64,000 nt of DNA. Origin: an uncultured Candidatus Saccharibacteria bacterium (lineage in GTDB: Bacteria; Patescibacteriota; Minisyncoccia; Phycocordibacterales; UBA918). Numbering within the stretch: position 1 is the stretch's first letter; the number at the start of each line of letters is the position of its first letter. The stretch is from NCBI GenBank assembly GCA_964350735.1, contig CAYGKO010000002.1, positions 155,566 to 219,565 of the forward strand, read 5' to 3'. Below, in pieces: positions 1,958-45,127 of the stretch. Below the pieces are notes generated by a model. The model was given only the letters and a program-made list of their open reading frames with translations. It was not told the DNA's origin and did no database searches. Position numbers and translations under genes: made by a program.

Positions 1958-1975
1958 TTGATCAAATTTGATCAA
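1958..1975. promoter_or_regulatory. Perfect 18-bp palindrome TTGATCAAATTTGATCAA, upstream of the primase-helicase start and overlapping the stop of the preceding gene. Operator-like.
   Basis: The sequence is its own reverse complement. It sits in the 75-nt region just 5' of the minus-strand start at 1883. Confidence 0.4.
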
Positions 1976-6032: not shown

Positions 6033-9000
6033 TTGAATAAATGCTATATAACTACACAAAAGCCTATTATGCTAAAGGACACAATCATAAATATAGTTTC
6101 ACCGGATGAGTTTGAGAATCTTTGCCAACAAATACTTGTTGCAGAGTTTCCAGACTTCGAGGTAATTGATGACAGCTCAGGTGACGGTGGTAATGATGGC
6201 TATAGTGCTAGTGAAAAAACACTTTGGCAGCTTTACTGTCCTAAAAAAGATAATTTGTCGATAAAGGAGCAAAGAGAGCGATACCAGGCAAAGATCAGAA
6301 CCGACTTGGCTAAGGCAGCAAAACTTAAGAGCGAAAAAGGGTACGAGATAGATAGATGGATTTTTACAACAACAAAACCACTTACAGAAGAATTACACAC
6401 TTATCTAAGGAATAAAGCCGGGGATTACGGCTTTGCCTGTTCAGTGTGGTCGTCAAAAAAACTAAATGAGTTGCTGTCAAAACACTCACATGTACAGGAT
6501 TTGTTTCCAGACTTAGTTTTAGCAAAAACTCACGAGCTGGTTGAGGAAGTTAAGGCAAACCAAAAAAGTGTTGCCGACTCAGAAGCAAAAGGAAAACAAA
6601 CTCTCAATTCCGCGTTTAAGAAAAGAATTGACGAGGCCAGAGATCGGTTAAATGTTGGCAATGCCGCAAGCGCAAAGGAGTCATACATGAGAATCTTGGA
6701 TGACATGAGTGAATATCCGTCTGAGATAGATCAGCATCTACTCTTCAGAGCAAAGAATAACCTAGGAAATGCTGAACAGATTCTCGGGAATTACCCAGAG
6801 GCTGTCAGATTATTCAGAGAAGCTTTTGAGCACGATCCAAATAATAAGGTTGCGATACTGAATCAGGCATTAGCATTAACACTCGAAGAAAAGTATGAAG
6901 AAGCATTAGGCTATCTAGAAACTATTTCTGCTGACTACGGTACTGATAATCACTACATTGTTATCAGATGCAATACTCTCAAAATGCTCGGTAGATATTC
7001 AGATTTATACGAATATTTAGGACCTCTGTCCAAACCAAAATTACTTTTAACATACAGGGCTTTTGAACAACAAGACGCAGGAAATTCAAAAGAGGCCCTT
7101 CATTTTTTTGAAGAGGTTTTAAAAATTGAGCGTGGCAATCAAGAAGCTCTTGAAGGTGCCACCCACTCCGTTTTATTTGGTTATAAAGATGATTTGCGTA
7201 ACGGAACTTTGCCTGAATACATGTTGAAGCCAGAGCTGCGTGAAATATTCCAAAAGACTGAGTCATGGATCAAACAGTTAATTGAAATATACAAATTCAA
7301 TAACGAGACTCAAAAGATTGAGGCGGGCTACACAAACCTGGCAGCAGCACAGTTAGCTTTGTCTGACTATCAAACAGCACTCAGATCGGCTCAAAAAGCG
7401 CTCGACTATGACGCTACTTCAATGGTTGCGTGGCAAAACAAAGGTATATGTGAACTGAAACTAAATAACTACAAAGATTGTCTACACAGCCTAAAACAAT
7501 TCGTTGTTTACGGGGGTGTTGAAGCTGCCGTAGCTCCTGTGCTGGCTATGTGTGCACGAGAGATCAATGATCATGATCTGACTATTGAATACGGTGAAAA
7601 ATATTTGCATGTTGATGGAACTATAGATATTGAGATGGCAGAAATTCTAATTGGCGTTTATGCGAACGATCTTAATACGGAGAAAGTTGAGCGAATTCTA
7701 AACGAACTTAAGGACTCTCACCCAGATGATAGTTCAGCGAATAGAGTAATTGGAAATTTTTATAGCAAGCGAGGTTTAGACGACGCTTTATCTCACTTAG
7801 AGAAAGCTATAGCTAAAGCACAAAACCCAACAGATAAAATGATGGCTGAAGTAGCGCTTGCTGACCACCATTTTAAGAGCAGTGACTATAACAAAGCAGC
7901 TGATTTATACGAAAAATATATTGATAAAGATGAAGCACGTTTTGTAACAATAAAATACTTACGCTCTCTTTATCGAGCTGGTAAATATGGTCAGTTATTG
8001 AAAGAGGTGTCAGAGTTCGGTGACAGCGCTAAAAACATTGAGCAGGTTTTAGAGCTTGAAGCACATGCAAATCTAACATTGCAAAACATTGAAATTGCAG
8101 CCAGAAAGTTTAAAAAACTTTATACCAATACCGGAAATACGGACTACGTTATTAATTATGGGTTATGCGAAATTAGACAAAAGAACACCGACAAAGCAAA
8201 AAGCGCTTATGATGCTGCAAGGTCACAAGCTAAAGACATTAACGACTGGATGTCGTTAGCACATGGCTACACCGCGTTAGGTGACTGGGCCTCAGCAATT
8301 GACTTGGTTCATAAAAGCTACGAACAAGACCCTAATGACCCAGAAATAATGAAGTCTTATATATGGATATTTCTATTTTCTGAACAAGCTAGTGATATTG
8401 AAAGTAACGAGAAGCATGTGAAAACATTTCAAGAAATCAGTGTTAAATACGGTGAAAGGTTTCCTGATCAAGAAGACTTGCGAAGCATAAAGATTCAAGG
8501 TGATGATGTGACACCTATTTTAGAGATGATTAAATCTGTCTCGGAAAACGCTCAGCAGGCCCAAACCTTTTACTCAGAATCAAAAGCACCACTGTCCTTT
8601 ATTCCAAACATGACTGGCAGAAGTCCACTGGTTGTTTGGAATGCTTTTACTGCTGACAGTCAAACTGGTATTCAGTCAAATTTTGGGAGCGAAGACGAGA
8701 CAGTGTACGAACAAAAAACACTGAAAGAAACATCAAACCTACAGACTGTTATTGATATATACCCGATTCTGTTACTGCACCGAACAGGCTTCTTAGAAGA
8801 GGTTCTGGGTAATTTTAAAAAAGTTTACATCCACCAAAGCGTCCTTGATAACCTTAATGCTTCAATTAATGACGAACGGCTCGCTTTGAAAAACGGACAA
8901 GAAACTATCGGTTACAACAATGGCCAGTTTGTGATGACTGAGATGAGTGTTGAACAAATCTCGAAATCAGTCGAAAATGTAGAGACATTAATTGAAAAAA

Positions 9001-9626
9001 TTAAATCGTTACCAAATGTTGAAATAAGAGGCTTTGAGTCTGAAACTGATAACGTCGAGACTGATTTTCTCAATAAGCTTCATACCACGACAAGAAGTTC
9101 AGCATATCTAGCTAAGCAACTAGGCATACCGTTTTATACAGACGACAAGATAGTGCGTGCTGTCCTTAAGTCTGATGAAGTATATTCTTTCTCAACATAT
9201 GGCCTACTAACCCACCTTGCGTCTGAAGGTAAGATCACGGACGACCATTACCATTCACTTCACAAGCAAATGCTTGAGTTGGGCTACACATACGTACCTA
9301 TTAATGCCAAAATGATTTTTTATGAGCTGGTCAAAGAGATGAGTATCGAATCAATCGAAATTTATGCCAGAAACATCGCAAAACCTGAAACCACATTACC
9401 TTCAGTAACAGTTGTCTTGAGTGAGTTACTACTCTTTCTCTTAGCTGAAACTGCGATTCCAAACTCTACAAAAAAACAAGCTTTTCAGAGAATGTTGTCA
9501 GAGATAAAAGAAAATCACGATGTGCAAAATATAAGAGAAGGTATATCGTTGATTCTTGGAAAAAATTTAGACAGCACACAAAAAGTCTTTGTAGACCAAT
9601 TACTCGATACTCTTATTGGAAGGTAG
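6033..9626 (+). CDS. Large multidomain protein (1197 aa). N-terminal Mrr-like PD-(D/E)xK restriction-endonuclease domain, a long TPR-repeat array, and a C-terminal domain with PIN-like acidic motifs.
   Basis: The N-terminus FENLCQQILVAEFPDFEVIDDSSGDGGNDG ... LWQLYCPKK ... RWIFTTTKPLTEEL matches the Mrr_cat pattern (FExl..ll..mGy.v ..gDgGiD .. vQcKry .. ifvTt). Many 34-residue A/L/Y/N-rich repeats span roughly residues 200-800. The C-terminal region has VIDIYPILLL and FYTDDKIV acidic motifs. Confidence 0.6.
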   Translation: MNKCYITTQKPIMLKDTIINIVSPDEFENLCQQILVAEFPDFEVIDDSSGDGGNDGYSASEKTLWQLYCPKKDNLSIKEQRERYQAKIRTDLAKAAKLKSEKGYEIDRWIFTTTKPLTEELHTYLRNKAGDYGFACSVWSSKKLNELLSKHSHVQDLFPDLVLAKTHELVEEVKANQKSVADSEAKGKQTLNSAFKKRIDEARDRLNVGNAASAKESYMRILDDMSEYPSEIDQHLLFRAKNNLGNAEQILGNYPEAVRLFREAFEHDPNNKVAILNQALALTLEEKYEEALGYLETISADYGTDNHYIVIRCNTLKMLGRYSDLYEYLGPLSKPKLLLTYRAFEQQDAGNSKEALHFFEEVLKIERGNQEALEGATHSVLFGYKDDLRNGTLPEYMLKPELREIFQKTESWIKQLIEIYKFNNETQKIEAGYTNLAAAQLALSDYQTALRSAQKALDYDATSMVAWQNKGICELKLNNYKDCLHSLKQFVVYGGVEAAVAPVLAMCAREINDHDLTIEYGEKYLHVDGTIDIEMAEILIGVYANDLNTEKVERILNELKDSHPDDSSANRVIGNFYSKRGLDDALSHLEKAIAKAQNPTDKMMAEVALADHHFKSSDYNKAADLYEKYIDKDEARFVTIKYLRSLYRAGKYGQLLKEVSEFGDSAKNIEQVLELEAHANLTLQNIEIAARKFKKLYTNTGNTDYVINYGLCEIRQKNTDKAKSAYDAARSQAKDINDWMSLAHGYTALGDWASAIDLVHKSYEQDPNDPEIMKSYIWIFLFSEQASDIESNEKHVKTFQEISVKYGERFPDQEDLRSIKIQGDDVTPILEMIKSVSENAQQAQTFYSESKAPLSFIPNMTGRSPLVVWNAFTADSQTGIQSNFGSEDETVYEQKTLKETSNLQTVIDIYPILLLHRTGFLEEVLGNFKKVYIHQSVLDNLNASINDERLALKNGQETIGYNNGQFVMTEMSVEQISKSVENVETLIEKIKSLPNVEIRGFESETDNVETDFLNKLHTTTRSSAYLAKQLGIPFYTDDKIVRAVLKSDEVYSFSTYGLLTHLASEGKITDDHYHSLHKQMLELGYTYVPINAKMIFYELVKEMSIESIEIYARNIAKPETTLPSVTVVLSELLLFLLAETAIPNSTKKQAFQRMLSEIKENHDVQNIREGISLILGKNLDSTQKVFVDQLLDTLIGR

Positions 9627-10087: not shown

Positions 10088-10866
10088 GGGGAAATGGTGT
10101 CAGCGGGGAAATGGTGTCAGGGGAAATGGTGTCAGGTACCTTTTATCGGCCTCCCTCTCCCTCGTACCGTCATGCTCAGCTTGTGTCTATCAATCATAGT
10201 GTCTGACCATACATCAGAGCCAAAGGGCTTCCCCTTATTCACCGCATTTCTAGCAGCTTCTAGTTCTGCTGCTGTCAGGGGTAACTGGAGAAAATCTAAG
10301 TAGTTGTTTGGCAATGAAACCGGAGGTGAAGATACTATCGTACTTTTAATGGTATGGAGTCTTTGGTATGCACTGGAATACTTCCAGTTCTGAATATTTT
10401 TAACTAGCTTCGCCCGCAGCGGGTTTCTTTCAACGTAGCGAATGACTGTTAAGAGGTGCTGATCTTGCTGAATTAAAAAAGATTTGTATCTTCCTTGGTA
10501 CAAGGAACCTGAACCAATAGTTTTATTCTGTACATGCCATCGCTGTGTATGAGTGAGCGTGAGCCATTGCATGAACTTCTGTAGATCACCATCTTTTCTT
10601 GGGTGAAGCACGAGATGAAAATGATTAGGCATAATACAATACGCCAATACACGCATGTCGTATTTTTCAACACCATCCTCTAGAATAGACTCAAAGAGTT
10701 TGAAATCTTCTTCTTTGAAGAAGATTTGTAGCCTTGCATTAGCCCTATTAATGATGTGATAGATTTCACCTCCAATATCTACTCTTGGTACCCTTCCCAT
10801 ATGTTACTATAGTAACATAAAAGGTACCTGACACCATTTCTGCTGACACCATTTCTGACATTTCTG
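10088..10866. mobile_element. REP-flanked RAYT / IS200-IS605-like element. A Y1 transposase gene is bracketed by multi-copy inverted GAAATGGTGTCAG repeats.
   Basis: Left end has 3 tandem copies of GGGGAAATGGTGTCAG (10088-10135). Right end has 2+ inverted copies of CTGACACCATTTC (10828-10866). The terminal 18-mers GAAATGGTGTCAGGTACC (10123-10140) and GGTACCTGACACCATTTC (10823-10840) are perfect reverse complements. Confidence 0.65.
10132..10800 (-). CDS. tnpA: HuH-Y1 transposase (REP-associated tyrosine transposase / IS200-like TnpA, COG1943 type).
   Basis: HuH motif MPNHFHLVL and catalytic-Tyr motif YVERNPLRA. N-terminal R.PR...GEIYHIINRANARLQIFFKEEDF matches the RAYT N-terminal pattern. Confidence 0.75.
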   Translation of the reverse strand: MGRVPRVDIGGEIYHIINRANARLQIFFKEEDFKLFESILEDGVEKYDMRVLAYCIMPNHFHLVLHPRKDGDLQKFMQWLTLTHTQRWHVQNKTIGSGSLYQGRYKSFLIQQDQHLLTVIRYVERNPLRAKLVKNIQNWKYSSAYQRLHTIKSTIVSSPPVSLPNNYLDFLQLPLTAAELEAARNAVNKGKPFGSDVWSDTMIDRHKLSMTVRGRGRPIKGT

Positions 10867-11748: not shown

Positions 11749-13152
11749 ATGAAAAAAATATGCCTAGTTGGCTTCGGTCCGCACGCTAAACGCATTCACT
11801 ACCGATATATAAAAGAAGGAGTGTCCTCCGAGAAGGTTCAATTTTCTTCCTTGGTGGATCTCATAGAAAAAAATGATGACATAAACACTTTCTTTTTAAC
11901 AGAAACGTGTTTGCCAAAAAATATATTTCTATCAAGGGATTCAGACCAAAGAGTGCCTGACAAATTAGCTGATGATGTTAAATTATTCTTGGACCAACAA
12001 ATTAGTCAGGGAGAAATTAACTGCGCAATTATCTCAACTGAACCTAAGGCACATAAAATATACATCGAGTATTTTATTTCCCGCGGTATTCCTGTGTTAA
12101 CAGACAAACCACTCACTGCCCCAGTTGGTTTAGTCCATAACCAATTGCAGGCTGAAAAGATTTATACCGATACTCTACAACTACAGGCATTGAGCGAAGC
12201 AAACAAAACTCCAATTTATGTACTATCACAAAGAAGAGAGCATGACGCGTATAAACATATCTTCAATTTAGCAGCTCAATGTGTTGCTGAATTTGGCATA
12301 CCAATTACATATTTTGATATCTTTCATAGCGACGGAACTTGGTCCATGCCTGGAGAATTCTACTCACGCGAAAACCATCCCTACAAGTACGGTTACGGTA
12401 AACTAATGCACTCAGGGTATCACTTTGTTGATTTGGCAGCCTGGGTAGCAGAAGTTAATGCGAATATTTATCCAAACCTACAAATTACTAACACTACTGA
12501 ATTACTCAGTCCACAGATGCAATATGAGCAGATTAACGGCTCGCAGAATTACGAGAGATTCTTTGGTAAATTAACAAATAGCCCGCAACCAGAAGGACTA
12601 GGTGAGGTTGATAGTTATACGACTATCAAAATGCACGTTCCTGGTGAAGACCCAGCTTCAACAAAACACATCTCCCTTGGTAGACTAGATCTACTTCAGT
12701 CTGGTTTCTCACGCCGAGCATGGTTTGATTTAGCGGCAGATACCTACAAAGGAAACGGTAGAATACGTCACGAGAGAATCACCATGCACCTTGGTCCTTT
12801 AATGGCTATTCACGTTCACTCTTATCAGTCTGATCAGGTTGGCAAAACAAACATCGAGGGAGTCGGTGGCGAAGAACATTTAGATGTATACGTATTTAGA
12901 AATGACCAACTGATTGGCGGACGTGGTTTTGAGCGCTTAAATTTTGGTCAAATCATACATTCACGCCATCAGTCAGAATCTACCTACATAGGTCAAAATG
13001 AGATTTCAAGGTGGAAGATTTTCCAGCAATTTATCACCGATGAAAAAAGTGACGCTTTAATTGAAAATCAACTTGTAACAAACAAATTATTGAATAGTAT
13101 GTATATATCGGCGATTACCAAGAAATCACACAATATTAAATATAATGACTAG
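11749..13152 (+). CDS. Gfo/Idh/MocA-like NAD(P)-dependent oxidoreductase.
   Basis: N-terminal Rossmann start KICLVGFGPHAKR. Family EKP-like motif GIPVLTDKPL. 467 aa with a long C-terminal domain. Confidence 0.45.
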   Translation: MKKICLVGFGPHAKRIHYRYIKEGVSSEKVQFSSLVDLIEKNDDINTFFLTETCLPKNIFLSRDSDQRVPDKLADDVKLFLDQQISQGEINCAIISTEPKAHKIYIEYFISRGIPVLTDKPLTAPVGLVHNQLQAEKIYTDTLQLQALSEANKTPIYVLSQRREHDAYKHIFNLAAQCVAEFGIPITYFDIFHSDGTWSMPGEFYSRENHPYKYGYGKLMHSGYHFVDLAAWVAEVNANIYPNLQITNTTELLSPQMQYEQINGSQNYERFFGKLTNSPQPEGLGEVDSYTTIKMHVPGEDPASTKHISLGRLDLLQSGFSRRAWFDLAADTYKGNGRIRHERITMHLGPLMAIHVHSYQSDQVGKTNIEGVGGEEHLDVYVFRNDQLIGGRGFERLNFGQIIHSRHQSESTYIGQNEISRWKIFQQFITDEKSDALIENQLVTNKLLNSMYISAITKKSHNIKYND

Positions 13153-24893: not shown

Positions 24894-25676
24894 TTACTCA
24901 GCCGCGACTCCCAAGCCGCCGTAGCGACGATCTTTCGAGACTGAGGCGAACCAGCTCAAGTCTCTGACGAAACATACTCGGTCATACGTCGGCCAAAACT
25001 CATCCACGATGCGGATCTGGGCATACGCGAGAGACCACAAGAGAAAGTTTGATATCCGAGCGTCGCCACCCGTACGTACCACCATGTCAAGCGGAGGGAG
25101 ATCTCCAGTATCCATGGCAGACTCAAACATCTCAGTAGTAAGAACGTCTGACATTTCTCCAGCAGTTGCCTTATCGAGAAGAAACTGTGCAGCACGCACC
25201 ACCTCATCTTGTCCTCCGTAGTTTAGTGCTATGGTGAGATGAAGTCGAGTGTTGTCTTTCGACTCCTCCTCGAGGGAGAACATCATATCGACAATATCGG
25301 TCGGAACACGCTCATCATCGCGATCGCCAATGAAGCGAATGCGAACCCCTTCCTTCAAAAGTTCTTTACGCTTTCTACTGAAGTACCGGCGGAAAAGTCC
25401 AAAGAGTCCGTTAACTTCTTCGTCTGCACGCTTCCAGTTTTCTGTTGAAAATGCAAAGAGCGTGAGATATTCAATACCAAATTCGATACACCACTCAGTG
25501 ACGCCCTCTACAGTCTCTGCTCCTGCCCTATGACCAGCCAGACGACTTAATCCCAGAACATCTTTACCATGCCGGCCATTGCCGTCCATGATAAATGCGA
25601 TATGTTTAGCGACGCCGACAGGCGACGACTCTTGAGCAGTCAGCATGTTGACCTCCCTGTTTGTTATACGAACCAC
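24894..25676 (-). CDS. uppS: Undecaprenyl-diphosphate synthase (cis-isoprenyl transferase).
   Basis: HIAFIMDGNGRHGK (DGNxRW/H motif). C-terminal RxG and ExxxR-type motifs. Confidence 0.8.
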   Translation of the reverse strand: MVRITNREVNMLTAQESSPVGVAKHIAFIMDGNGRHGKDVLGLSRLAGHRAGAETVEGVTEWCIEFGIEYLTLFAFSTENWKRADEEVNGLFGLFRRYFSRKRKELLKEGVRIRFIGDRDDERVPTDIVDMMFSLEEESKDNTRLHLTIALNYGGQDEVVRAAQFLLDKATAGEMSDVLTTEMFESAMDTGDLPPLDMVVRTGGDARISNFLLWSLAYAQIRIVDEFWPTYDRVCFVRDLSWFASVSKDRRYGGLGVAAE

Positions 25677-25727: not shown

Positions 25728-27626
25728 CTATTTTAATAGCTCAAACTGACTCGTCAGTCTCTCTACTTCACTTTGCTCACCAAAGAGTTGGATACCAAGG
25801 AATTCAATATTCTTGAGATCTTTCTCAGCGGTATTGGTTTTTACCTTATTATCATTGGTGGTTTCGATCATTTCCTGCGTGAAGGTAGTCACGCGCACAT
25901 CAGCTGACTCAGCTACTTCAAGTAATGCCTGCAGATCATGGTTGCTATCGCACTCTTTCACCATAATGGCGTGCTGAATATTCATCGGGATTTGCTTGGC
26001 GTCTTTGGTGGCGATGGTATCAAACTTCAAAAGCCCCTTCCCTTCACGAGCACCGAGAGCGGCTGCTAGGTGAGCGGCGGTATTGGTTAGTTGCCAAAGT
26101 TCCATATCGTTCTTCCGCACGACCATCACTGACACTTTGTTACTTTTCTTCTTAGACTTCCCTTCGCCCTTAGGCTTCATCAGTGGGAAATACTGTGTCT
26201 CGCGGATTGGTTTATCCATTAGGTAGGCAAAAAAGCGTTCACCAAGTGTTGCAGCTCCAAAGGTTGGTGGCATACCATATTCGAGCATCTCAACGAACTC
26301 CCAGTCCGGCATCATCGCTTCGTCGTCACCGCGCGCGATCAATTCTTCTTGTACCTTAAAGCGCTCTGCTTGGTCGATAGGATCATTTAACTCCGCGTAA
26401 CAGTTATTAAATTCTGCTCCCGCCATAATAAGCTGAGCTCGAAGCACTTGCCCTTTATTATTCGGATCTTCTTTAGACAACGCTGAAACCAACTTTGGGT
26501 GGCCAATAAGCCACACTGGCCCAGCAATCGACTTGCGGCAGTACTTCCACAGCGTATCCATTAAGCGCTCACGGTTATTACCATCAAACTCAATCCCCAG
26601 TTCAGCCGCAGTAGCGGCCATCTCGACTTCAGTAGCTGAAGTAACATCAATACCAGTCTTTTGCTTGATCGTATCAACGTAATCAATCCGTTCAAACGGT
26701 TTGCTAAAATCTACGTCAAAACCTTTGATAGAAAATTGTTGCTTACCAGCAAAGGCTTCGTCGAGCACATACTTGATATGTCGCTCCAAGAGTACTAAGC
26801 CTTCCTCGAAGCTCATATACGCTGCGTAAAACTCAATATTGGTGAATTCCTGCAAGTGGTCTGGACTGGAACCTTCGTTTCGGTACACACGGCCAACTTC
26901 AAAGGTACGCGGAATGCCTGAGGCCATCAGTCGCTTCTGCCACAGCTCCCCTACAGAAATACGCAAGAACGCATCAATGCCGTAGTCATTATGATGCGTT
27001 GCAAACGGAGTAGCTTCAGCACCACCAGTTGTGGTCTCCAGAGTTGGTGTATGCACCTCCATAAAGCCTTCAGCTTCCATAAACGCGCGAGATGCTTTCC
27101 AAAACTTAGCTTTTGTATCAAATAACGCTCGTAAATCTGGATCAAGTAGAATATCCAGATAGCGCTTGCGGTAGCGCTCTTCTTCGTCTTTAATGCCGAA
27201 ATGTTCAGTTGGCGGATTATTCAAAGCTTTTGTGAGCACCTGCCAGTCCGATACAGCAATTGCTTCAGCGCCGCGCTTGGTTACAAATGGCACTCCTTTC
27301 ACTTCAATAAAATCTCCGGGATCGATCGTATCATTAAGCAGTTCGAACAATCGGACTCCGATCGCATCTTTGGAGAGAAACATTTGCATCCGGGCCGTAC
27401 CATCAAAAATATCAGCAAAAGCTGAACCACCGTGACGTCTGAGCGCCATTACCCGTCCAGCGACCACTACTTCAACCTCATCGTCTGCCAACGTCTCAAA
27501 ATCTGCCAGCACCTGCGAAATCGCATGCGTCCGAGTTGTCTCAGCCGCATACGGGTTCATCCCAGCCGCCGCGAGCTGATCTCGCTTTCGTAGACGTTCG
27601 GCTTTGATTTCTTCGAAGGTTGACAT
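25728..27626 (-). CDS. lysS: Lysyl-tRNA synthetase (class II) with a ~140-aa C-terminal extension resembling a PTH2-type peptidyl-tRNA hydrolase domain.
   Basis: LysRS N-terminus MSTFEEIKAERLRKRDQL, anticodon-binding and class II motifs up to FPLMKPK. A K-rich linker GEGKSKKKSNK follows. Then KVSVMVVRKNDM...TAAHLAAAL...IMVKECDSNHDLQALLEVAESADVRVTTFTQ...FLGIQLFG, which parallels PTH2 (vlvvRtDLkMgkGKiaAQcsHAa ... vvlK..de..L..L...A...gl.v..i.DAG.T....tVLgIGP). Confidence 0.8.
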   Translation of the reverse strand: MSTFEEIKAERLRKRDQLAAAGMNPYAAETTRTHAISQVLADFETLADDEVEVVVAGRVMALRRHGGSAFADIFDGTARMQMFLSKDAIGVRLFELLNDTIDPGDFIEVKGVPFVTKRGAEAIAVSDWQVLTKALNNPPTEHFGIKDEEERYRKRYLDILLDPDLRALFDTKAKFWKASRAFMEAEGFMEVHTPTLETTTGGAEATPFATHHNDYGIDAFLRISVGELWQKRLMASGIPRTFEVGRVYRNEGSSPDHLQEFTNIEFYAAYMSFEEGLVLLERHIKYVLDEAFAGKQQFSIKGFDVDFSKPFERIDYVDTIKQKTGIDVTSATEVEMAATAAELGIEFDGNNRERLMDTLWKYCRKSIAGPVWLIGHPKLVSALSKEDPNNKGQVLRAQLIMAGAEFNNCYAELNDPIDQAERFKVQEELIARGDDEAMMPDWEFVEMLEYGMPPTFGAATLGERFFAYLMDKPIRETQYFPLMKPKGEGKSKKKSNKVSVMVVRKNDMELWQLTNTAAHLAAALGAREGKGLLKFDTIATKDAKQIPMNIQHAIMVKECDSNHDLQALLEVAESADVRVTTFTQEMIETTNDNKVKTNTAEKDLKNIEFLGIQLFGEQSEVERLTSQFELLK

Positions 27627-27716: not shown

Positions 27717-28187
27717 CTACTCTACTTTTAGTAACTTATACTTCTGTTTTCCAGCTGGAGTTTCGAAGATAATTTCTTCTCCTTTCGCCTTCCCCATCAA
27801 GGCTTCTCCGAGTGGTGAAAGATATGACAGTTTGTGCTCGTGGATGTTTGCTTCTTCAGATCCCACGATCGTGTAGCAGCGATCTGTTTTTTCACCATCC
27901 TTTTGGATACAGACTACAGAGCCGAGTCCAACGATATCACCCTTCTTATCATGAGCAACGATCTTGGCTTCCTTAATGACTTGCTCGAGGTGATTGATTC
28001 GCTCTTCAATAGCAGCTTGCATATCACGCGCTTCTTGGTATTCAGCGTTTTCAGACAAATCTCCGAGACTTCGGGCGTATTCTAGCGATTCAGCGACTTC
28101 TTTACGACGGACAGTCTTTAGGTGTTCTAGTTCTTTCTTTAATTCCTCAAACTTTTCAGGTGTAAGGTAGGCTTGTTGGTCATCCAT
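27717..28187 (-). CDS. greA: Transcription elongation factor GreA.
   Basis: LT(P)EKFEELKKELEHL... SLGDLSENAEYQEARD coiled-coil with the acidic tip. C-terminal FKBP-like domain. Confidence 0.85.
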   Translation of the reverse strand: MDDQQAYLTPEKFEELKKELEHLKTVRRKEVAESLEYARSLGDLSENAEYQEARDMQAAIEERINHLEQVIKEAKIVAHDKKGDIVGLGSVVCIQKDGEKTDRCYTIVGSEEANIHEHKLSYLSPLGEALMGKAKGEEIIFETPAGKQKYKLLKVE

Positions 28188-35940: not shown

Positions 35941-37350
35941 TTACTCAGCCTTTGGTTGCTTGGCAAGAATAGCTGTGATGACTCGTCGTAGATAATGTTC
36001 AAAAGTCTCACCAATCTCATGCACCATCCCTTGCTCATAGCGCCACCCATTCATGTAATCAGTCAGACTTTGTTTCACCTCCGTCGAAGCCCCTTCAAAT
36101 CGCCCTGAAACCACTGAAGACATTGGCAACGCTGCCAAAGTTTTATACATTGGGTGTTCACGTCCGCTTGGACCAGTTCCAAACAGTCCACTACTCTTGA
36201 ACAAACTCCACTCAGAAAGTAATTGATCCAGGCCATTAGTAATCTTTGGATCCATAAGCGGGTCTGCATTAGTGGAAGCTGGGGCGACTTCAGGAACTGG
36301 GGTATTTTTCTCTTTTTCAATAGATTCATTCTGTAGATCAGTAGCTAACGACTTCAAGCCGCCTGCACTTGGTACCGCTGGTTCTGGTGAGTCTTGCAGT
36401 GGTTCAAGACTGACTTCAGGCGCAGAAGGTTCTGACTTAGGAACAGTGGCTGGAGTTACTGGTTCTGGAACTGGATCAGCGACTGGTGCTGAAATCGGTT
36501 CAGCTGCCGTAACTTCTGGAGCTGGTGTGGGTTCTACTGATTTAGCTGCGGCTGCGAAACCTGAAACCGGTGCGGCAGTCATAGTCGCGGCTACTGGTGT
36601 TGGCGTAGTCTCAATAGTATCCAAAGGGGTTTCTTTGAGAGTTTTCTCAACGGACTCGTAAGCGGTTTCAAGGCGCTGCATTGCTGCAGTGACGGCAGAC
36701 GATTCGCCGCCATGCACTTTCTTCATTGCATCAAGTAAAGCATTCATGTACTCACGTCCCACTTCGTTATTAGCATCAATCAGATTAACCGGGTTTCCCA
36801 CCTTTTCGTTTACCAGCTTCTTAATTTCTTTAATTCTACCCAGGTGATCTACTGGAGAATCAGGCACCGGAACCGCAGGCACAGGGTCAACTTCTGAAGC
36901 AGAACTAACTACGTCTTCAGTTTGAACAACTTCTTCTTTTACCGTCGTTGGCTTCAAATCTGGCAGCGGAGCAGCTGTTGGTGTTGGTGTTGGTGTTGTC
37001 GGCAAGTTTTGTGCAAAAATTGGCTTCGGGCGAGCAGAACCAAATGAAGCTCGCGGTAATACTGGTTCTTCAGCTTTTAACGACACTGTTTGCGCCTCGT
37101 TATTACTTCTACTATCAAAAACCTCAACGTTATCGATGAGTGTTAAGTTCTCAGTAATTTGCGTAAAAAGATTATGATTTGGGGTAAACACATAATCCAG
37201 AATCATGTTGCGTGTTACATTCTGTAACTCAGGGTCCATGGCTTTGCCTCGGACATAGTTAAGCAGCGCCAGCGCATCAGTTTGGCTAGAAAGATCAAAA
37301 GATTTTTTGGCAACAGCTCCAGCTGATGCTCCAAGAACACTACCCTGCAT
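35941..37350 (-). CDS. Hypothetical protein with long Pro/Thr/Ala/Val-rich linkers. Last gene of the VirB4-like operon.
   Basis: Low-complexity PTTPTPTPTAAPLP and PVPEPVTPATVP segments flank a helical central domain. No TM was seen. Confidence 0.4.
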   Translation of the reverse strand: MQGSVLGASAGAVAKKSFDLSSQTDALALLNYVRGKAMDPELQNVTRNMILDYVFTPNHNLFTQITENLTLIDNVEVFDSRSNNEAQTVSLKAEEPVLPRASFGSARPKPIFAQNLPTTPTPTPTAAPLPDLKPTTVKEEVVQTEDVVSSASEVDPVPAVPVPDSPVDHLGRIKEIKKLVNEKVGNPVNLIDANNEVGREYMNALLDAMKKVHGGESSAVTAAMQRLETAYESVEKTLKETPLDTIETTPTPVAATMTAAPVSGFAAAAKSVEPTPAPEVTAAEPISAPVADPVPEPVTPATVPKSEPSAPEVSLEPLQDSPEPAVPSAGGLKSLATDLQNESIEKEKNTPVPEVAPASTNADPLMDPKITNGLDQLLSEWSLFKSSGLFGTGPSGREHPMYKTLAALPMSSVVSGRFEGASTEVKQSLTDYMNGWRYEQGMVHEIGETFEHYLRRVITAILAKQPKAE

Positions 37351-37745: not shown

Positions 37746-40700
37746 TTATTTATTAAACGTCATCTTTTGATTATTGGTGTCATAGCCAAGCACAAGCTGT
37801 CCTTGTACAGATTTATTTTCAAGATACATTCCTAGATTCATCGAACCGTCTGTTTTTATAAATCCATTATCTGTATCGGCTTTCACATCAGCTAACATAG
37901 CCTGAAGATTAGTGCGCACCGCTTCAGGCAGTTTACTAATCTGCGTATCATTAAGCTCAATACCCTGTGCCGATAAACCAGTTATTTCAATATCGGCTAA
38001 TGCTTTTGTAGTAAGTCCTGATTCCACGCTCATCAGGCTCGCTAGCGCCATATCACGTTCTGTTAAAGCCTTGAATAGCCGCTCGATACTCGCTGCGTCA
38101 GTCACATCGTCTGACAAACGACTTACTAGTTCTCGGCCCGTATCAAATAAATTGGGTATAAACTGAGACAGGTTTTCGTTGTATCCATCACGAACTCGTT
38201 CTGTGATTTCAGCAATACTTACTTCAACAGCCGCTCGATCAGGACCCGCCGCATCAGCCCCAGCTGTTTCATAAGTCGATTCAGTCGTTGCCACCGGTTG
38301 ATTTTCAAGCGCCTCTACCAGAGGTGTTAAATTAATCGCTTCCTGTGGAATAACGTTGATGTTAGTTACATTAGCATTCATCGCCTGCATAGCTTCAGTA
38401 TTAGCTCCCACAGCTGCAATCGCCGCGTCACGCTGAACTTCTGTCACACCTGGCATATTTGATTCAAGATACCTCTGGAAAAGCTTTGTCACATCATCTC
38501 CTGACCTCGCTACGGGAGCAATCTCTGTTGGATTAATAACCGGCGTGACTTCCGTTGATACTGGTGAAGATGCTGCGTTTTCTGCAGCATAGGATAGCTC
38601 TGAAATCTTATTCATGATTGGGCTTAGATCATACGTCTCTCCTTCTTGTACTATGTCAATATTATTCGTACCAAGCGCCTCTGGGTTACTACGGAAGCTT
38701 TCAATCGCCGCTACTCGTATTTCTCGTGAGGTCTCTCCCCAAGCAGGATCGTCTGTTTCAGCTAATTTTTTAAGGATCTGATCTACTGCTTCAGTAATAT
38801 TGCAGTTTTTCGGCATGGTGAAGTTAAATGCTTCAGAGTTTTTACCAACAGTAATTTCAAGTGGCTCTATAACTTCACCTTCGGGGCCAACTGAAGTTAC
38901 GCGCTCAACCGCAGCAGGCGCAGCGGCCGCATCTGGAGAGACCGGCCTTGCCGTTGGTGCCGGAGCTTTGTCTGTTGTCACAGCACTCTGCCCTTCTAGA
39001 CCGACAACTCGCTGAACAGCAGGACCTTCAGTCAAGATATTTTCATAACGATTTCCATCAATAATTGCTGTCACTTTAGTTAATGAACCATCTGGAACAA
39101 ATGTGACTCCGGTGATATTGGTTTCAGGAGCAGCCAACAAGTTCGCATCCACGTTATCAGGGATTAAATCTGGATTGATTCGCAATCCAACACCATACAC
39201 TGATGACACTCTATCCAAACTTCCTCCAATCTGCCCCACCTCTCCTCCTTCGATACCAAACTGTCTAAGTGCCGAGATCGGTCTGTTCTCTGAATATACG
39301 ATCGAATGTGCTTCAGGAGATCCCGTGATTTGAGTAAAGCCAGCGTATGGTGAGTCTATAAGTTCCATTGCCCGCTGCTCCATTCCAGGAGACACACTAA
39401 TCCCCTCAAGCGGATCGACCGCAGTTGCTTCGAGTAGATTAGTGTTTTCAAGCTTTGGTGAAGTAGCCACGCTACTACTACCTGTTAGTTTCTCTAGAGA
39501 AACCGGGTCTTTTGCAGATCCCAAACCGTAGCCTGACCCATCCAAAAGATGTACCTCATACCCGTCAGCAGCAGAGCTCAAATAAACACTGCCAATTTCA
39601 TCAGGCACCACTGATGAAAAATTTGCACTAAGAGACAGGATTCTCTCAAGCTGCTCCGACCGAAGACCCACCAAATCATACAGACCAGGTCCATGCAGAT
39701 ACATCCCGGAAAAATTAAAAGCCCCTGAACTCAGAAGCGGATCACTAAACTTAGTAGTGTCGAATTCTTTCTCAGCTGCAAATGCCAGTATGTTGCGCTG
39801 ACCAATCCTCAGCATTCCCACTGTTTGACCTTCCAAGGTCCCTGACGTTACAGAAATTGGCAAACCTTCAATCACTAGCCCATCTTCTGTTTTGTATAAA
39901 TTCAAACCACCTGACATACCGTCAAGTCTGACATCCAATGATCCGAGATTCTGAAAACCACTTCCGTCCGCTGCAGTTCCATTATCTATCTGACCCTCAC
40001 CAGTAAAGGTTAGGTATGCGAATGTGAGACCCTCCACACCTGACACCTTTGATACTTGCCCGGTAACAGATTGCGGCTGCAGTTCTCCATTTACTAATTT
40101 AAAATCAACAAAATCAACTCCTTGTGCATTTTTCAACGTATCAGAAGCTGTACTCCCCATTAACTCCGCCAACCTTGTCATATCAAGTGTCCGGTCTGTA
40201 GTATATTCATACTCACCAGCACCACCATTACGATTATCAAGCATCACCAGTCCGTTTTCTGACACAGTCACGTTCTCAGCTTCAATACCAAACTGTGCAA
40301 ATAGTTCTTTAGCCGCTTCTGGTGACACACCACCCGACAGCCTGTCTAGCAGCTCAGTTTTACTGATTAGAGACTCAGCGCCGGTTACTTCTATATCCGC
40401 TCCACTACCTGCAACATTCTCGACAGCTCCACCTGCAGGTACTGTCGTGCCCTCACCTAAAATCGCTGCAAGATCAGCTGCGTCCACTGTTCCTGCAGCA
40501 GCTTCAGGTGCTGAGTTTTCTGCTGTCGCCGGGTCAGTTAACTGATCTAATCGAACTTGTTGCGCTGAGGTTTCATCTGTGTAGATCAACATATTCTCAA
40601 CCGATCCGTCTGACTTCACGCTGATACTGGCGATTGAGTAGTCTGATAACGCTTTACCTTCTGGAGTGAGTTTTGTTAGAAGCCCAGAACTTGGATCTAA

Positions 40701-42056
40701 TGTAACTCCGTCAGCTCGCTCAATCATGAAAGCAAATCCATCAGGATTTTCAGAAACTGTCATATTCACCTTTGCGTCCGCGTGTAAATCAATCTGCAAA
40801 TCAGGAATCAAACTTGTAATAGTCTGGGCACTTACATTTTCTGCTGCCAAAAAATTAATTGAATCAGCGCCACCTTCTGCAAACACTTGCAAATCAGCTT
40901 CACCAAACAGTGGCTGGAGCTCGCGAGTGATACCATCTAAATCTCTGGGATTAATCTCTTGTGCGAACAGTTCAGTAAGCTGTTGACGTGGAGTTTGTAC
41001 TTCAGCTTCGGGCACGGCTTCTCCTGCTGCAGTTGATTCAGCTTCAGCCTCTGATGCCGTGCCTAAGATAGCAGTCAGATCTGCAGCACTTACCACACCA
41101 GCAGGTGTAGTTTCAGATCCTGCTAGCGACTCTTGGGCTGCGGCTGACGGTGCCACAAAATCTACGACCCCAGACCACGTTGCGGAAGCTGTTTCTTTTC
41201 CTGCATCAAGTAGTGCTTGGCGTCCGGCTCCATCAAACGCCACTGAGTCAGTCATGAACGCTGTACCGATAGCATACCCAAGCCCTTTAGTCATGGCTTG
41301 AATATCACCAGAACGAACCGCTTTTGCCCAACCTTGCAGCCCTTGCACAAAGACAGTATTAGCATTCACTTTAATCTGTTCAGCTTTTTCACGAGCATGC
41401 TGCGCGTGCCGCTCGGCCAGCACTTGATTGACTCGCTTCAGTGTATCGACCGCTGCCCGGGCAACCGTAGCCGCTCCAGCACCAAGTCCTCCAGTAGCCA
41501 AACCAAGCGCTAAGATAATTGGGGTGGTGGCTTTCTCGGCAACATTGAGTCGTTGGTTCCAGTCCTCATTGCTAATTGATTTTTGAATCCCTTCTCGAGC
41601 GCCAGCATGACGAGTACGGTTGGCCCACAGAATCTGTGCCAAAACTTTACGCTGTTCAGCGGCTTCTGCTTTTGGTAGCTGATCAATCACGCTCCGAAGT
41701 TCTGAGAGCGTCTGTAACATCTCAATACGCTCACTACTGTCAACTCGTGCTGCTTCATCTTCTCCCCAGACACCCTTTTCTGTACGCAACTTTTTTGCTA
41801 CCTGTAGCATCTTTGCCCGACGTTCGACTAGATTAAACGCCAGTTGCTCGTGCTCCTGCATGAAACTACTCATTTCTTTAGCTTCTCCACGTGCTTTCCA
41901 AGCCGCTACTCCAGTGGCATTTTCAATAAGTGCGCGACCAAGCTTTGCACCACCTTCCATGACGCGTTTTCGGTCGAGCGCCAAAAGTCGCTGCAGCCAT
42001 GATGACTTACCTACTGTTTCTGCTGCCGATGATGACATTGTTCCTTCAAGAGCCAT
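37746..42056 (-). CDS. Giant lineage-specific protein (1436 aa) with one N-proximal hydrophobic segment. Probably a surface or secreted component of the T4SS-like locus.
   Basis: Uninterrupted 4.3-kb ORF, translationally coupled to its neighbours. Hydrophobic stretch TTPIILALGLATGGLGAGAATVARAA. The remainder is A/T/S/G/E-rich with beta-rich segments. Confidence 0.5.
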   Translation of the reverse strand: MALEGTMSSSAAETVGKSSWLQRLLALDRKRVMEGGAKLGRALIENATGVAAWKARGEAKEMSSFMQEHEQLAFNLVERRAKMLQVAKKLRTEKGVWGEDEAARVDSSERIEMLQTLSELRSVIDQLPKAEAAEQRKVLAQILWANRTRHAGAREGIQKSISNEDWNQRLNVAEKATTPIILALGLATGGLGAGAATVARAAVDTLKRVNQVLAERHAQHAREKAEQIKVNANTVFVQGLQGWAKAVRSGDIQAMTKGLGYAIGTAFMTDSVAFDGAGRQALLDAGKETASATWSGVVDFVAPSAAAQESLAGSETTPAGVVSAADLTAILGTASEAEAESTAAGEAVPEAEVQTPRQQLTELFAQEINPRDLDGITRELQPLFGEADLQVFAEGGADSINFLAAENVSAQTITSLIPDLQIDLHADAKVNMTVSENPDGFAFMIERADGVTLDPSSGLLTKLTPEGKALSDYSIASISVKSDGSVENMLIYTDETSAQQVRLDQLTDPATAENSAPEAAAGTVDAADLAAILGEGTTVPAGGAVENVAGSGADIEVTGAESLISKTELLDRLSGGVSPEAAKELFAQFGIEAENVTVSENGLVMLDNRNGGAGEYEYTTDRTLDMTRLAELMGSTASDTLKNAQGVDFVDFKLVNGELQPQSVTGQVSKVSGVEGLTFAYLTFTGEGQIDNGTAADGSGFQNLGSLDVRLDGMSGGLNLYKTEDGLVIEGLPISVTSGTLEGQTVGMLRIGQRNILAFAAEKEFDTTKFSDPLLSSGAFNFSGMYLHGPGLYDLVGLRSEQLERILSLSANFSSVVPDEIGSVYLSSAADGYEVHLLDGSGYGLGSAKDPVSLEKLTGSSSVATSPKLENTNLLEATAVDPLEGISVSPGMEQRAMELIDSPYAGFTQITGSPEAHSIVYSENRPISALRQFGIEGGEVGQIGGSLDRVSSVYGVGLRINPDLIPDNVDANLLAAPETNITGVTFVPDGSLTKVTAIIDGNRYENILTEGPAVQRVVGLEGQSAVTTDKAPAPTARPVSPDAAAAPAAVERVTSVGPEGEVIEPLEITVGKNSEAFNFTMPKNCNITEAVDQILKKLAETDDPAWGETSREIRVAAIESFRSNPEALGTNNIDIVQEGETYDLSPIMNKISELSYAAENAASSPVSTEVTPVINPTEIAPVARSGDDVTKLFQRYLESNMPGVTEVQRDAAIAAVGANTEAMQAMNANVTNINVIPQEAINLTPLVEALENQPVATTESTYETAGADAAGPDRAAVEVSIAEITERVRDGYNENLSQFIPNLFDTGRELVSRLSDDVTDAASIERLFKALTERDMALASLMSVESGLTTKALADIEITGLSAQGIELNDTQISKLPEAVRTNLQAMLADVKADTDNGFIKTDGSMNLGMYLENKSVQGQLVLGYDTNNQKMTFNK

Positions 42057-42358: not shown

Positions 42359-45127
42359 TTATTTCTTTAAGCCATTAATGTACTCTTGTAAATCAGGCAC
42401 AGCCTCAGCAAAGCCATTGATAGCAGAAAGTGCGTCATACACTTGTTGGGCCTTTTCTGGACCAGAATCGCCCAACAAAGCTTTGATGAGATTCTGCTCA
42501 AGCTCTGGTGTGAGACCAGTAACATTTTCTGGTGTAATAAATTGATTCAGTCGGTCAGGAATATCGTTTTTGATCAGTTCACCAACATTTGGAGCCTCGC
42601 CAAGTGACACTTCCACTGGCGCAGAAGCTGTGTTTGCTGGAATGTCAGGAGCAGTATTTATGGGTGGAGAAGTCACACTTGCTTCATCAACTGCAGCGAT
42701 ATTGAAAGATTGTTCTCCGTCAAGCTGTTTAATCTCAGGCTCTGGAGCATCAGCGATCTCAGGCAATGGCGCGGGTGCCTCAGTAACTGGCCGCGGTTCA
42801 GGAGCAGGAGCCTGACTCGGAGCTGCTTCAGCAACCACCTTTGATACCTCCTCTACAACTTCAGGATCCGTTTCTCCCACCCAACCTACAAATAAATCTT
42901 TGGCAGACTCTAACGCACTTCGACCAAATACTGCTCCCGCTGCTGCCCCAGCTGCGGCTCCTGCTCCGGTAACAATTGCATTCGTAGCCAGAAATCCCCA
43001 AGAGTTGGGTTCATTAATTTTTTTCATCAACCGGAGCTCAGCTGTATCAGCAGCTTTATCTAACTTATCTTGAGCCAATAACGCTGGATTTTTTTGCCAC
43101 TGCTGTGTCCAGTGCGGCCTGAACTGATCTTCCATTCTGGCCCGTAAAGTATTTTGGTACCTTCGCCGACCAAATATCCGTCGAAACCTTAGTAGAAGTA
43201 CTGCAGCAAACGCACTACCCTCCGTCGCTCCCTGTGCTACTTCAGCTTCCATCCCTGCTATTCCATCAGCCCCATATTCGCGAGTAATAAATGGCGCTGC
43301 AACAGCACCCATCGCAACCGCAATTCCAGCCGCTCGGCTCAATGACATATACGTTCTCTTTTCATCTGCTTCTTTACCCCTGCCCCACAGTAAGAGGCTT
43401 CCAAAACGATTGTTATCAATACTATTTGCTTTTATTTGAGCCCTTTTTTCATAGTCTTGCACCACTGTAAAACCAACCAGGTTCGCACGTAGATTCTCTC
43501 GCAACACTTTCTTGTTTTTACCACCCCACAATTTTACACCTTTAGTTTTCTTTACTTCATCAATAAACGGAACGACTGTTTCTAATGTGTTTTTAATATA
43601 GGCATACCGCGCAGCTTTATACGCTGTGTATTCAGTCTCTTCTGCTTCATTTAAATCTCTACCTGCTTTGCACACATCTGACCAAGTAGTGAGCATGTCA
43701 TTTCGTTTTAAAAGGTACTCATCTTTAAACTTTTGCACTTCGGCTTCAATTTGCGGAACTCGATCTAACAAATCCCGTACAGCTGGCATGGATTCATCCT
43801 TGAACTGATTTTTAACCATTTGTTTAAGATCAAATTCGGCTGGCAGCGACGGGCCTTCGGCCAATCCTTCAGCGTTTTCAACCACAGTAGGAGTCGAGAC
43901 TGACGCTGGTTCAGACCTTTCTTCACCCCCACTATCTACACCATCACCTTCAAACGTCGGAGTTACTGTAGGTCCTAGATCCAAATCATCCGCGGCAACG
44001 GGAAGTACTGGCTCAGTTTGCCCCTGACTTGTCTCAGCAGCACCATCAATTTTGTCGAGCATACTTTTGCCATGCTCGATATTCTCATCAGTACGTGTAA
44101 GCAAACTAGCAAAGTCAGTGAGGAAAATAAGCAGTTCTTCGGTTTCATCAGAAGACAAAGCCTCAATTCCTGCAGCCACTTCTGTTCGCTTGAGGGCAGT
44201 ATAGTCTGATTCAAACCCACGTAATATTTCATACAGCTTACGTTTAGTTTCTCCTTCTTCCAGATCTTCATATGAGGACGTAAGCGAATCATACACACTA
44301 TCTATCACCCTTAATCTGTTAGCTACAATCTCACGAAGTTCTTCGCGGGTAGTTTGTATGTTAGATTCAGGCGTATGCAGTTTGGTCAGCAGAGCTATAG
44401 AGAGCATTGATGATCCTATTTCTTCTAACTCTCTGTCTTGTGAAACACCCTCTCCACCACTCTGTTTCTCTTCAAGTAACTCAGCCAAATCTTGAGTTAA
44501 CATACCCAATTCTTGACTACTACCAATAGTAGTCTGAATATCTGGTCGCTGTAGTGCTGATTTTAATTCATTATAAAATTTTTGAAGATCTTCTGCAGAA
44601 ATATGTGGACCAGCTGCTGTCTCAGTTACTGGTGGGGGCTCCACCCCCCACAACGTATCAAGCCCAAAGTATTCCAGTTCTTCAATTTCTACACCTTCAG
44701 ATTCTACACTAGCAGCTGCATCTTGTGGGGAATTTGTAAATTCAGGATCACTGACAGTTACCGCTTGTTGACGTCGGCCAGCCCCTGGTTTTGGTGCTGA
44801 CTTTACTGCTTTTGGCATCAAAATAGCAGCTGGAGCTGGCTCTTCATCAACAGCTTCGTCCGCATTACCATGCTCAAAAAATTGCTTAATTCGAGTAAGC
44901 TGGTCTAAGGTACAAACTGCTTCCGCGAGAAGATCCGGCGGAAACGCCTCCATTAATTTACTAGCCGCTTCTGAACTAACCGCAAACTGCATAATCGCAG
45001 TTTTAATTGCATTAGTATGTTCCCTACTTTCTTCAGGACTATTCAAAAGACTCTGCAGATCATCTGGCAAGGATATTTTTTCAGCTTCTCGATTATGTAT
45101 TACTTCATTCATACTGTTTTTGTTCAC
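42359..45127 (-). CDS. Large lineage-specific protein (922 aa) with two hydrophobic, Gly/Ala-rich membrane-like segments and a Pro-rich C-terminal region.
   Basis: Hydrophobic segments AAGIAVAMGAVAAPFI and GFLATNAIVTGAGAAAGAAAGAVFG. PAPEPRPVTEAPAPLPE linker. ATGA overlap with the upstream 640-aa gene. Confidence 0.45.
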   Translation of the reverse strand: MNKNSMNEVIHNREAEKISLPDDLQSLLNSPEESREHTNAIKTAIMQFAVSSEAASKLMEAFPPDLLAEAVCTLDQLTRIKQFFEHGNADEAVDEEPAPAAILMPKAVKSAPKPGAGRRQQAVTVSDPEFTNSPQDAAASVESEGVEIEELEYFGLDTLWGVEPPPVTETAAGPHISAEDLQKFYNELKSALQRPDIQTTIGSSQELGMLTQDLAELLEEKQSGGEGVSQDRELEEIGSSMLSIALLTKLHTPESNIQTTREELREIVANRLRVIDSVYDSLTSSYEDLEEGETKRKLYEILRGFESDYTALKRTEVAAGIEALSSDETEELLIFLTDFASLLTRTDENIEHGKSMLDKIDGAAETSQGQTEPVLPVAADDLDLGPTVTPTFEGDGVDSGGEERSEPASVSTPTVVENAEGLAEGPSLPAEFDLKQMVKNQFKDESMPAVRDLLDRVPQIEAEVQKFKDEYLLKRNDMLTTWSDVCKAGRDLNEAEETEYTAYKAARYAYIKNTLETVVPFIDEVKKTKGVKLWGGKNKKVLRENLRANLVGFTVVQDYEKRAQIKANSIDNNRFGSLLLWGRGKEADEKRTYMSLSRAAGIAVAMGAVAAPFITREYGADGIAGMEAEVAQGATEGSAFAAVLLLRFRRIFGRRRYQNTLRARMEDQFRPHWTQQWQKNPALLAQDKLDKAADTAELRLMKKINEPNSWGFLATNAIVTGAGAAAGAAAGAVFGRSALESAKDLFVGWVGETDPEVVEEVSKVVAEAAPSQAPAPEPRPVTEAPAPLPEIADAPEPEIKQLDGEQSFNIAAVDEASVTSPPINTAPDIPANTASAPVEVSLGEAPNVGELIKNDIPDRLNQFITPENVTGLTPELEQNLIKALLGDSGPEKAQQVYDALSAINGFAEAVPDLQEYINGLKK

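Follow-up and report, generated by a model that had tools for sequence, protein, structure and literature searches.

A lysyl-tRNA synthetase with a C-terminal DUF2000 domain of PTH2-like fold, shared by CPR bacteria and DPANN archaea: a candidate tethered hydrolase

Hydrolase or editing domains are known as appendages of aminoacyl-tRNA synthetases, AlaX and B3/4 being established aminoacyl-tRNA editing domains. Lysyl-tRNA synthetase (LysRS) is among the synthetases held to proofread only before transfer, at the synthetic site, and is known to release some mischarged tRNA(Lys); to our knowledge no LysRS carries a post-transfer editing domain. For the DUF2000 family (PF09391) a crystal structure was deposited in 2006. 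Here we describe a gene in which LysRS and DUF2000 are joined. It lies in a stretch of 64,000 nucleotides (hereafter the window) of contig CAYGKO010000002.1, from an uncultured Candidatus Saccharibacteria bacterium, and occupies positions 25728..27626 of the minus strand, as do all the parts of it given below. Its open reading frame (ORF) encodes 632 amino acids (aa) plus a stop codon, with matches to Pfam PF01336, PF00152 and PF09391 and to NCBIfam NF001756.

Pfam and NCBIfam profile searches show aa 6-486 to be a complete class II LysRS. The OB-fold anticodon-binding domain comprises aa 53-129 (27240..27470; PF01336, E 1.2e-10) and the class II catalytic core aa 147-483 (26178..27188; PF00152, E 1.1e-60, profile positions 1-307 of 308), while NF001756 is matched over model positions 2-488 of 488 (E 1.2e-130). 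The NCBIfam lysine--tRNA ligase scores fall slightly short of their curated cut-offs (436.5 bits against 468 for NF001756, 384 against 427.6 for TIGR00499), which we assume to reflect a divergent LysRS lineage; no family scores better. The translation shows motif 2 (RVYRNEG..HLQEFTNIEFY) and, within GERFF, the motif 3 arginine, and we propose from the sequence that the gene product is an active class II LysRS. A preliminary description of this DNA had reported an extra domain past the LysRS C-terminus (FPLMKPK) and a K-rich linker, and this is borne out. The translation runs from YFPLMKPK through the linker GEGKSKKKSNK to VSVMVVRKNDM...TAAHLAAAL...IMVKECDSNHDLQALLEVAESADVRVTTFTQ...FLGIQLFG, all the strings quoted there being present, and the interval 25728-26170 assigned to the extension corresponds to the final ~147 codons together with the stop codon. 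The Lys-rich linker is aa 487-498 (GEGKSKKKSNKV; 26133..26168) and the domain itself, of ~134 aa, is aa 499-632 (25731..26132).

The match of aa 500-632 to DUF2000 is far beyond chance. It scores 73.6 bits, and 78.9 when the domain is taken alone, where the cut-off is 25 (E 1.9e-20), and it spans profile positions 4-133 of 133. A structure has been solved for one DUF2000 protein only, Atu0240 from Agrobacterium tumefaciens (2GAX). The single domain sequence finds it weakly (E 0.17), while a profile of 67 DUF2000 sequences searched against the PDB retrieves it at E 5.9e-20 and retrieves no PTH2 (peptidyl-tRNA hydrolase 2) chain at E<=10. An AlphaFold2 model of the domain, built with the same 67-sequence alignment, has a mean predicted local distance difference test score (pLDDT) of 94.9 and a predicted TM-score (pTM) of 0.85; its first 10 residues, part of the linker, score low (68). 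A Foldseek search with this model returns 2GAX, then every solved PTH2 at probability 1.00 (2ZV3, 1Q7S, 3ERJ, 1RLK, 1XTY and 1WN2), then noise, the fold being the same as that of 2GAX and the alpha/beta fold of PTH2. The sequence of 1Q7S matches that of human PTRH2 exactly. With hhalign, the DUF2000 profile aligns to a PTH2 profile, made of five PTH2 sequences taken from PDB alignments, at a probability of 75.8% (E 2.3e-5) over 110 columns.

The preliminary description had called the extension a PTH2-like domain. Foldseek and hhalign support the fold and the order of its elements, but membership of the PTH2 family does not stand: PF01981 has no match in the LysRS protein even at E<=10, and key residues are replaced (see below). 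A hidden Markov model from the five solved PTH2 sequences likewise finds nothing in the window or the related loci at E<=1e-3. The domain thus belongs to DUF2000 and has a PTH2-like fold; its homology with PTH2 is at the superfamily level, and it is not PTH2 itself. The two other identities raised for the extension gain no support from Pfam or from the fold search. YbaK/ProX has no Pfam match at E<=10 and does not appear in the fold search; an OB appendage of the EMAPII/Trbp111 type also has no Pfam match at E<=10, the model being an acidic alpha/beta sandwich and not an OB barrel. Matches below threshold to Anamorsin_N (17.9 bits against 27.1), SegC (17 against 200), BioH and RNA helicase A were dismissed.

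The spread of the fusion was assessed in two ways. Searched exhaustively with phmmer, 1.84 billion cluster representatives yielded 118 matches, made up of ~20 full-length LysRS-DUF2000 proteins (600-900 aa), many fragments and standalone proteins of ~140 aa. A pattern derived from the alignment of the fused clade was also scanned against one genome per GTDB species, and a close relative of the fused form was found in at least 144 species-level genomes. Loci from 80 of the 144 were examined, 77 of them with analysable ORFs, and in 74 of these 77 the LysRS core precedes DUF2000 in the same frame of one ORF. At least two of the three exceptions (L060, L076) are labelled Gracilibacteria, and in them DUF2000 falls in short ORFs with no LysRS core upstream when translated with code 11; these breaks probably stem from that choice, Gracilibacteria reading UGA as Gly (code 25), and not from a separation of the genes. 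The arrangement, described beforehand as unusual, is real but less singular than had been suggested.

Such a protein could in principle arise by chimeric assembly, or if a stop or frameshift between lysS and a separate DUF2000 gene downstream of it had been missed. One locus has this appearance: in L097 (3001-4909; cluster P0239) a 525-aa lysS ends within the first ~30 residues of the domain and is followed by a separate DUF2000 ORF of 99 aa. The contig has 2x coverage and the split is probably a sequencing frameshift rather than decay, a decaying DUF2000 domain being possible. The fusion ORF is intact in the window, on an independent Logan contig that encodes an identical protein, and in the 74 loci above. 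The protein is also found as cluster P0236 (NCBI and Logan), and at least 18 further cluster representatives have the fusion at lengths of 618-636 aa. Composition is uniform along the gene (GC 0.479 in the LysRS core, 0.456 in the DUF2000 domain), and the opposite-strand ORFs within lysS in the window's ORF list are short and without support. An artefact is effectively refuted, and we give it practically no weight.

The linker is short and constrained in length. From the terminal 'FP' of LysRS to the invariant Trp of the domain there is a median of 31 residues (range 27-43), the distance being 29-32 in 46 of 62 fused homologues, and the linker residue K492 is 87% conserved among fused homologues.

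Bacterial carriers bear the labels Paceibacterota, Saccharibacteria, Peregrinibacteria/Peribacteria, Gracilibacteria, Doudna-, Nomura-, Wolfe- and Zambryskibacteria, and others, of the Candidate Phyla Radiation (CPR). The archaeal carriers are DPANN members, namely Nano-, Woese- and Aenigmarchaeota, among them a closed Woesearchaeota chromosome (CP060218.1), and the bacterial-type LysRS-DUF2000 is present in twelve DPANN loci (L012, L016, L018, L035, L042, L046, L056, L057, L071, L074, L078 and L080). In a crude neighbour-joining tree the archaeal copies fall into two clades that lie within the CPR sequences, a topology that suggests interdomain transfer of the fusion from CPR to DPANN. The window protein is 71% identical to its closest relative in the genome collection (L003, JBLHGD010000033.1) and ~50% identical to Paceibacterota-type sequences, which places its host in the CPR/Patescibacteria. 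That closest relative is labelled 'Candidatus Azotimanducaceae', and a few other carriers have odd labels, Gammaproteobacteria or Methanosarcinales (L045, L056/L071/L074), while their LysRS clusters with CPR or DPANN; these look like cases of mis-binning or mis-assigned taxonomy.

The recurrence of the fusion in CPR bacteria and DPANN archaea, a matter the preliminary description had left to be checked, is patchy. PF09391 is present on 18 of the 120 closest LysRS (60-100% core identity), and relatives with 76-81% core identity (P0238/P0240/P0244/P0247) stop a few residues past FPLMKPK. At the syntenic mreB-mreC-PBP2-greA-lysS locus of one such relative (L095) there is no DUF2000 gene nearby. 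Carriers and non-carriers are intermixed in a tree of the LysRS core, which implies repeated loss, or gain, of the domain. Since close relatives live without it, DUF2000 on LysRS looks like an optional quality-control accessory, a role that its patchy presence fits.

Some fusions are longer still. HD hydrolase domains follow in LysRS-DUF2000-HD proteins (P0009, P0012, P0026, L015, L056, L064), an AlaX-like region (tRNA-synt_2c C-terminus plus tRNA_SAD, with HxxxH and CxxxH motifs) in LysRS-DUF2000-AlaX-like proteins (P0033, L078), and a B3/4 domain precedes DUF2000 in LysRS-B3/4-DUF2000 (P0052). The editing-type domains joined here to LysRS otherwise occur on AlaRS, ThrRS and PheRS. As HD, AlaX-like and B3/4 domains all join DUF2000, the LysRS C-terminus appears repeatedly to gather modules acting at the acceptor end. 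Matches that seemed to show 'repeated' domains in P0056 and P0089 were set aside as coiled-coil or low-complexity proteins.

The residues conserved throughout DUF2000, N515, H519, M586, G611, G616 and T625, each at least 90% conserved in the 67-sequence alignment, are all present in the window domain. The Asn and His lie on helix 1, the Met after strand 3, the two Gly in strand 4 and the Thr is C-terminal. Among 75 copies fused to LysRS, W511, N515, H519, N549, F582, M586, D592, G611 and G616 are invariant and H552 (92%), E585 (97%), K594 (99%) and K557 (at least 92%) nearly so. W511-x3-N515-x3-H519 (26070..26096) is spaced i, i+4, i+8 on helix 1 of the model (residues 25-47), placing the three side chains on one helical face. 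The N549-I-Q-H552 motif (25971..25982) stands just ahead of strand 2 in the modelled secondary structure, and the segment F582-T-x-E585-M586-x-x-T589-x-x-D592-x-K594 (25845..25883) follows strand 3 and aligns to the D-A-G-x-T loop region of PTH2. The helix-1 face and the post-strand-3 segment sit at the places that in PTH2 hold the invariant K, Q, H and D..T.

The five solved PTH2 share the GKGK Lys18, Gln22, His25, Asp86, Gly88 and Thr90 (S. solfataricus numbering). Lys18, Asp86 and Thr90 we take to be catalytic, a role reportedly described for them by Fromant et al. in 2005. In the hhalign alignment only two of the positions conserved in PTH2 are shared with DUF2000, the helix-1 His, where H519 pairs with His25, invariant in the AQxxHA motif of PTH2, and the C-terminal Thr (T625). 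DUF2000 has a GKGK loop shorter by two residues, and Lys18 faces the variable Q512, while Asp86 and Thr90 fall on T589 and N593. E585 could be the structural counterpart of Asp86, the register after strand 3, which comes from the hhalign alignment and not from a coordinate superposition, being uncertain by a few residues. With the GKGK Lys, the Asp and the Thr of PTH2 replaced, motif conservation does not imply hydrolase activity.

These replacements invite a reading without catalysis, in which the PTH2 scaffold would be kept but would hydrolyse nothing, binding instead a protein partner or the aminoacylated CCA end; it might retain or hand off Lys-tRNA(Lys), assist the Lys-rich linker in tRNA binding, or let LysRS dock on another factor. 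The Lys-rich tether, with its conserved K492, recalls RNA-binding appendages, close relatives dispense with the domain, and true editing domains, where present, are added beside DUF2000 and not in its place. The domain is acidic, however, which sets it apart from known tRNA-binding appendages, and the invariant residues are N, H, E, D and W, not K or R. N515 and H519 are also kept in standalone members that have no synthetase, which suggests shared chemistry over LysRS docking. We consider a purely non-catalytic role unlikely.

The reading we prefer, tentatively, is that DUF2000 serves as a tethered hydrolase or esterase that would clear aberrant aminoacyl- or N-acyl-tRNA(Lys). LysRS would grip the body of tRNA(Lys) while the acceptor end left the synthetic site for a cleft in DUF2000, to which W511, N515 and H519 of helix 1, N549 and H552 of the following loop and the segment with E585, M586 and D592 are predicted to contribute. 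In that cleft the domain would hydrolyse off an acyl group that is wrong or N-blocked and so free the tRNA(Lys) for another round of charging; candidate groups are a mischarged amino acid, a short peptide and an N-acetyl-aminoacyl group. Post-transfer editing or repair of aberrant aminoacyl-tRNA(Lys) would fit better than bulk recycling of peptidyl-tRNA. An acceptor-end role is favoured because the partner of the domain, joined to it by a linker of constrained length, is the enzyme that works on the tRNA(Lys) 3' end. Hydrolysis is favoured because the conserved positions hold polar side chains with catalytic potential (W, N, H, N, H, E, D, K, T) and do not form a basic patch, and because the fold, the co-fused editing domains and the optional nature of the domain fit with it. 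Canonical class II LysRS edits pre-transfer only, at the synthetic site (PMC5370406), which would leave an editing niche on LysRS unfilled.

Several results weigh against this proposal. PF01981 is not matched, and the presumed catalytic residues of PTH2 face Q512, T589 and N593 as described above. The placing of the helix-1, N549/H552 and E585-D592 residues in one pocket is inferred from their position in the modelled secondary structure. The isoelectric point of the domain is 5.06 and the median for fused domains 6.1, against a basic median of 9.1 for PTH2; given this acidity, the domain is unlikely to bind tRNA alone. The true editing domains that occur alongside DUF2000 may mean that it is not itself the editor. 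Standalone DUF2000 proteins are found in non-translation contexts, leaving room for a small-molecule substrate, and we found no measured activity in the literature for any DUF2000 protein.

The standalone proteins, typically of 136-142 aa, bear on the possibility of a small-molecule substrate. In three lineages, which include Dyadobacter and Chryseobacterium, the DUF2000 gene starts 8-10 bp past a GNAT or MarR-GNAT gene (L086 3039-4414; L087 3457-4414; L088 824-1775; L090 2041-3822), and in L090 a 4HBT thioesterase gene comes after DUF2000. Three other standalone members have unrelated neighbours, with SDR, metallophosphatase and AraC genes seen. DUF2000 could accordingly be an enzyme acting on a small molecule (an acyl or aminoacyl ester, a thioester or an adenylate), or a metabolite sensor regulating LysRS. 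Besides these neighbours, the acidity of the family overall would suit such a role, as would the production by LysRS of aminoacyl thioesters and diadenosine tetraphosphate (Ap4A) (PMC5370406). Set against it, the fused subfamily is bound to LysRS alongside tRNA-editing domains, the sole characterised relatives by fold act on tRNA esters, and the GNAT context is compatible with an N-acetyl-aminoacyl-tRNA substrate too. The GNAT and DUF2000 products may possibly be an acetylase/deacylase pair, by analogy with TacT, whose acetylation is undone by Pth (PMC9241777). On balance a small-molecule role seems distinctly unlikely.

The PTH2-like fold also raises the question of whether the domain is a general peptidyl-tRNA hydrolase, a bacterial PTH2 replacing Pth1 and placed on LysRS since sequestration of peptidyl-tRNA(Lys) is the most harmful. 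The idea is attractive in that, according to a reference cited in PMC11994314, pth-deficient E. coli dies through starvation for Lys-tRNA(Lys). A six-frame search found no Pth1 or PTH2 gene in the window or in 81 related loci, which amount to ~1% of each genome and are uninformative for the genomes as wholes. Syntenic close relatives lack the domain, however, which an essential Pth could not allow. The fusion is also present in DPANN archaea, and archaea in general, though the statement is not about these genomes, encode a canonical pth2 (PMC9241777). As the catalytic residues of PTH2 are not conserved either, we hold this explanation to be highly improbable.

Extending the preferred reading of a tethered hydrolase, DUF2000 might be an unrecognised class of PTH2-fold aminoacyl- or N-acyl-aminoacyl-tRNA hydrolases, providing the first known post-transfer editing or repair domain on any LysRS, spread among CPR and DPANN by transfer, with the GNAT-linked standalone members detoxifying acetylated aminoacyl-tRNA. 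This wider scheme is speculative, and we regard it as doubtful. If true, a tethered esterase of PTH2 fold would be a new way of policing tRNA(Lys) and would give the DUF2000 family its first function. It would also mean that ultra-small bacterial and archaeal symbionts with minimal genomes equip core translation enzymes with optional modules for quality control, modules apparently exchanged across the domains of life. If the domain is non-catalytic, it would instead show a hydrolase scaffold re-used as a synthetase appendage.

In the window, lysS stands in a conserved same-strand array, between greA (27717-28187) and uppS (24894-25676), in the order greA, lysS, uppS. The array is flanked by mreB, mreC and PBP2 on one side and by mraZ, rsmH and mur genes on the other. 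There are no tRNA genes in the window. Elsewhere, a 1197-aa tetratricopeptide repeat (TPR) protein (6033-9626, plus strand) matches PF20698, 'PIN domain associated with the TPR-GreAB-C-PIN system' (E 1.9e-18). The stretch in which it lies (~6-16 kb, including 10132-10800 on the minus strand) has a GC content of 0.37-0.39 against 0.44-0.50 in the rest of the window and also contains an IS200-like Y1 transposase; it may be a mobile or defence island. Long ORFs, of up to 1436 aa, lack a Pfam match at E<=1e-5 at 37746-42056, 42359-45127, 246-1883, 1972-3036 and 35941-37350 on the minus strand and at 11749-13152 on the plus strand.

The three domains of the protein are already present in automatic Pfam annotation; the LysRS-DUF2000 architecture shared by CPR and DPANN is, as far as our search goes, undescribed. 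Among 8 million full texts no paper was found on DUF2000, Atu0240, PF09391 or a LysRS-Pth2-type fusion. Burroughs & Aravind 2019 mention neither Pth2 nor LysRS, and the LysRS C-terminal B2 domain of Mukai 2017 is different from the DUF2000 extension.

Compared with the family as otherwise known, in which standalone proteins are typical, the domain here forms the C-terminus of a LysRS. The fused subfamily adds W511, N549, H552, E585, D592 and K594, invariant or nearly so, to the residues of the wider DUF2000, and Atu0240 has Phe where nearly all others, the window domain included, have His519. With PTH2 it has in common the fold and the order of its elements, a weak profile similarity over the full length, and the helix-1 His and C-terminal Thr; a tRNA context, too, is implied for the window domain by its fusion to LysRS. 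DUF2000 differs from PTH2 in a further beta-hairpin (model residues 52-62) and additional helices following strand 3, in its acidity and shortened GKGK loop, and in being tethered here to a synthetase where PTH2 is free-standing. Pth1 (PF01195) has a different fold and no sequence relation to DUF2000. It may be a functional analogue, being an esterase that acts on N-blocked aminoacyl-tRNA; its Asn/His/Asp set (PMC4929431) superficially recalls N515, H519 and D592, a resemblance by analogy only. Parallels in arrangement are the aminoacyl-tRNA editing modules, appended or free-standing, of the AlaX/tRNA_SAD, PheRS B3/4, YbaK/ProX and Dtd types, none of which the Pfam or fold searches return for the DUF2000 domain; here an extra domain of hydrolase fold is carried by the class II LysRS, and its fold is unrelated to theirs.

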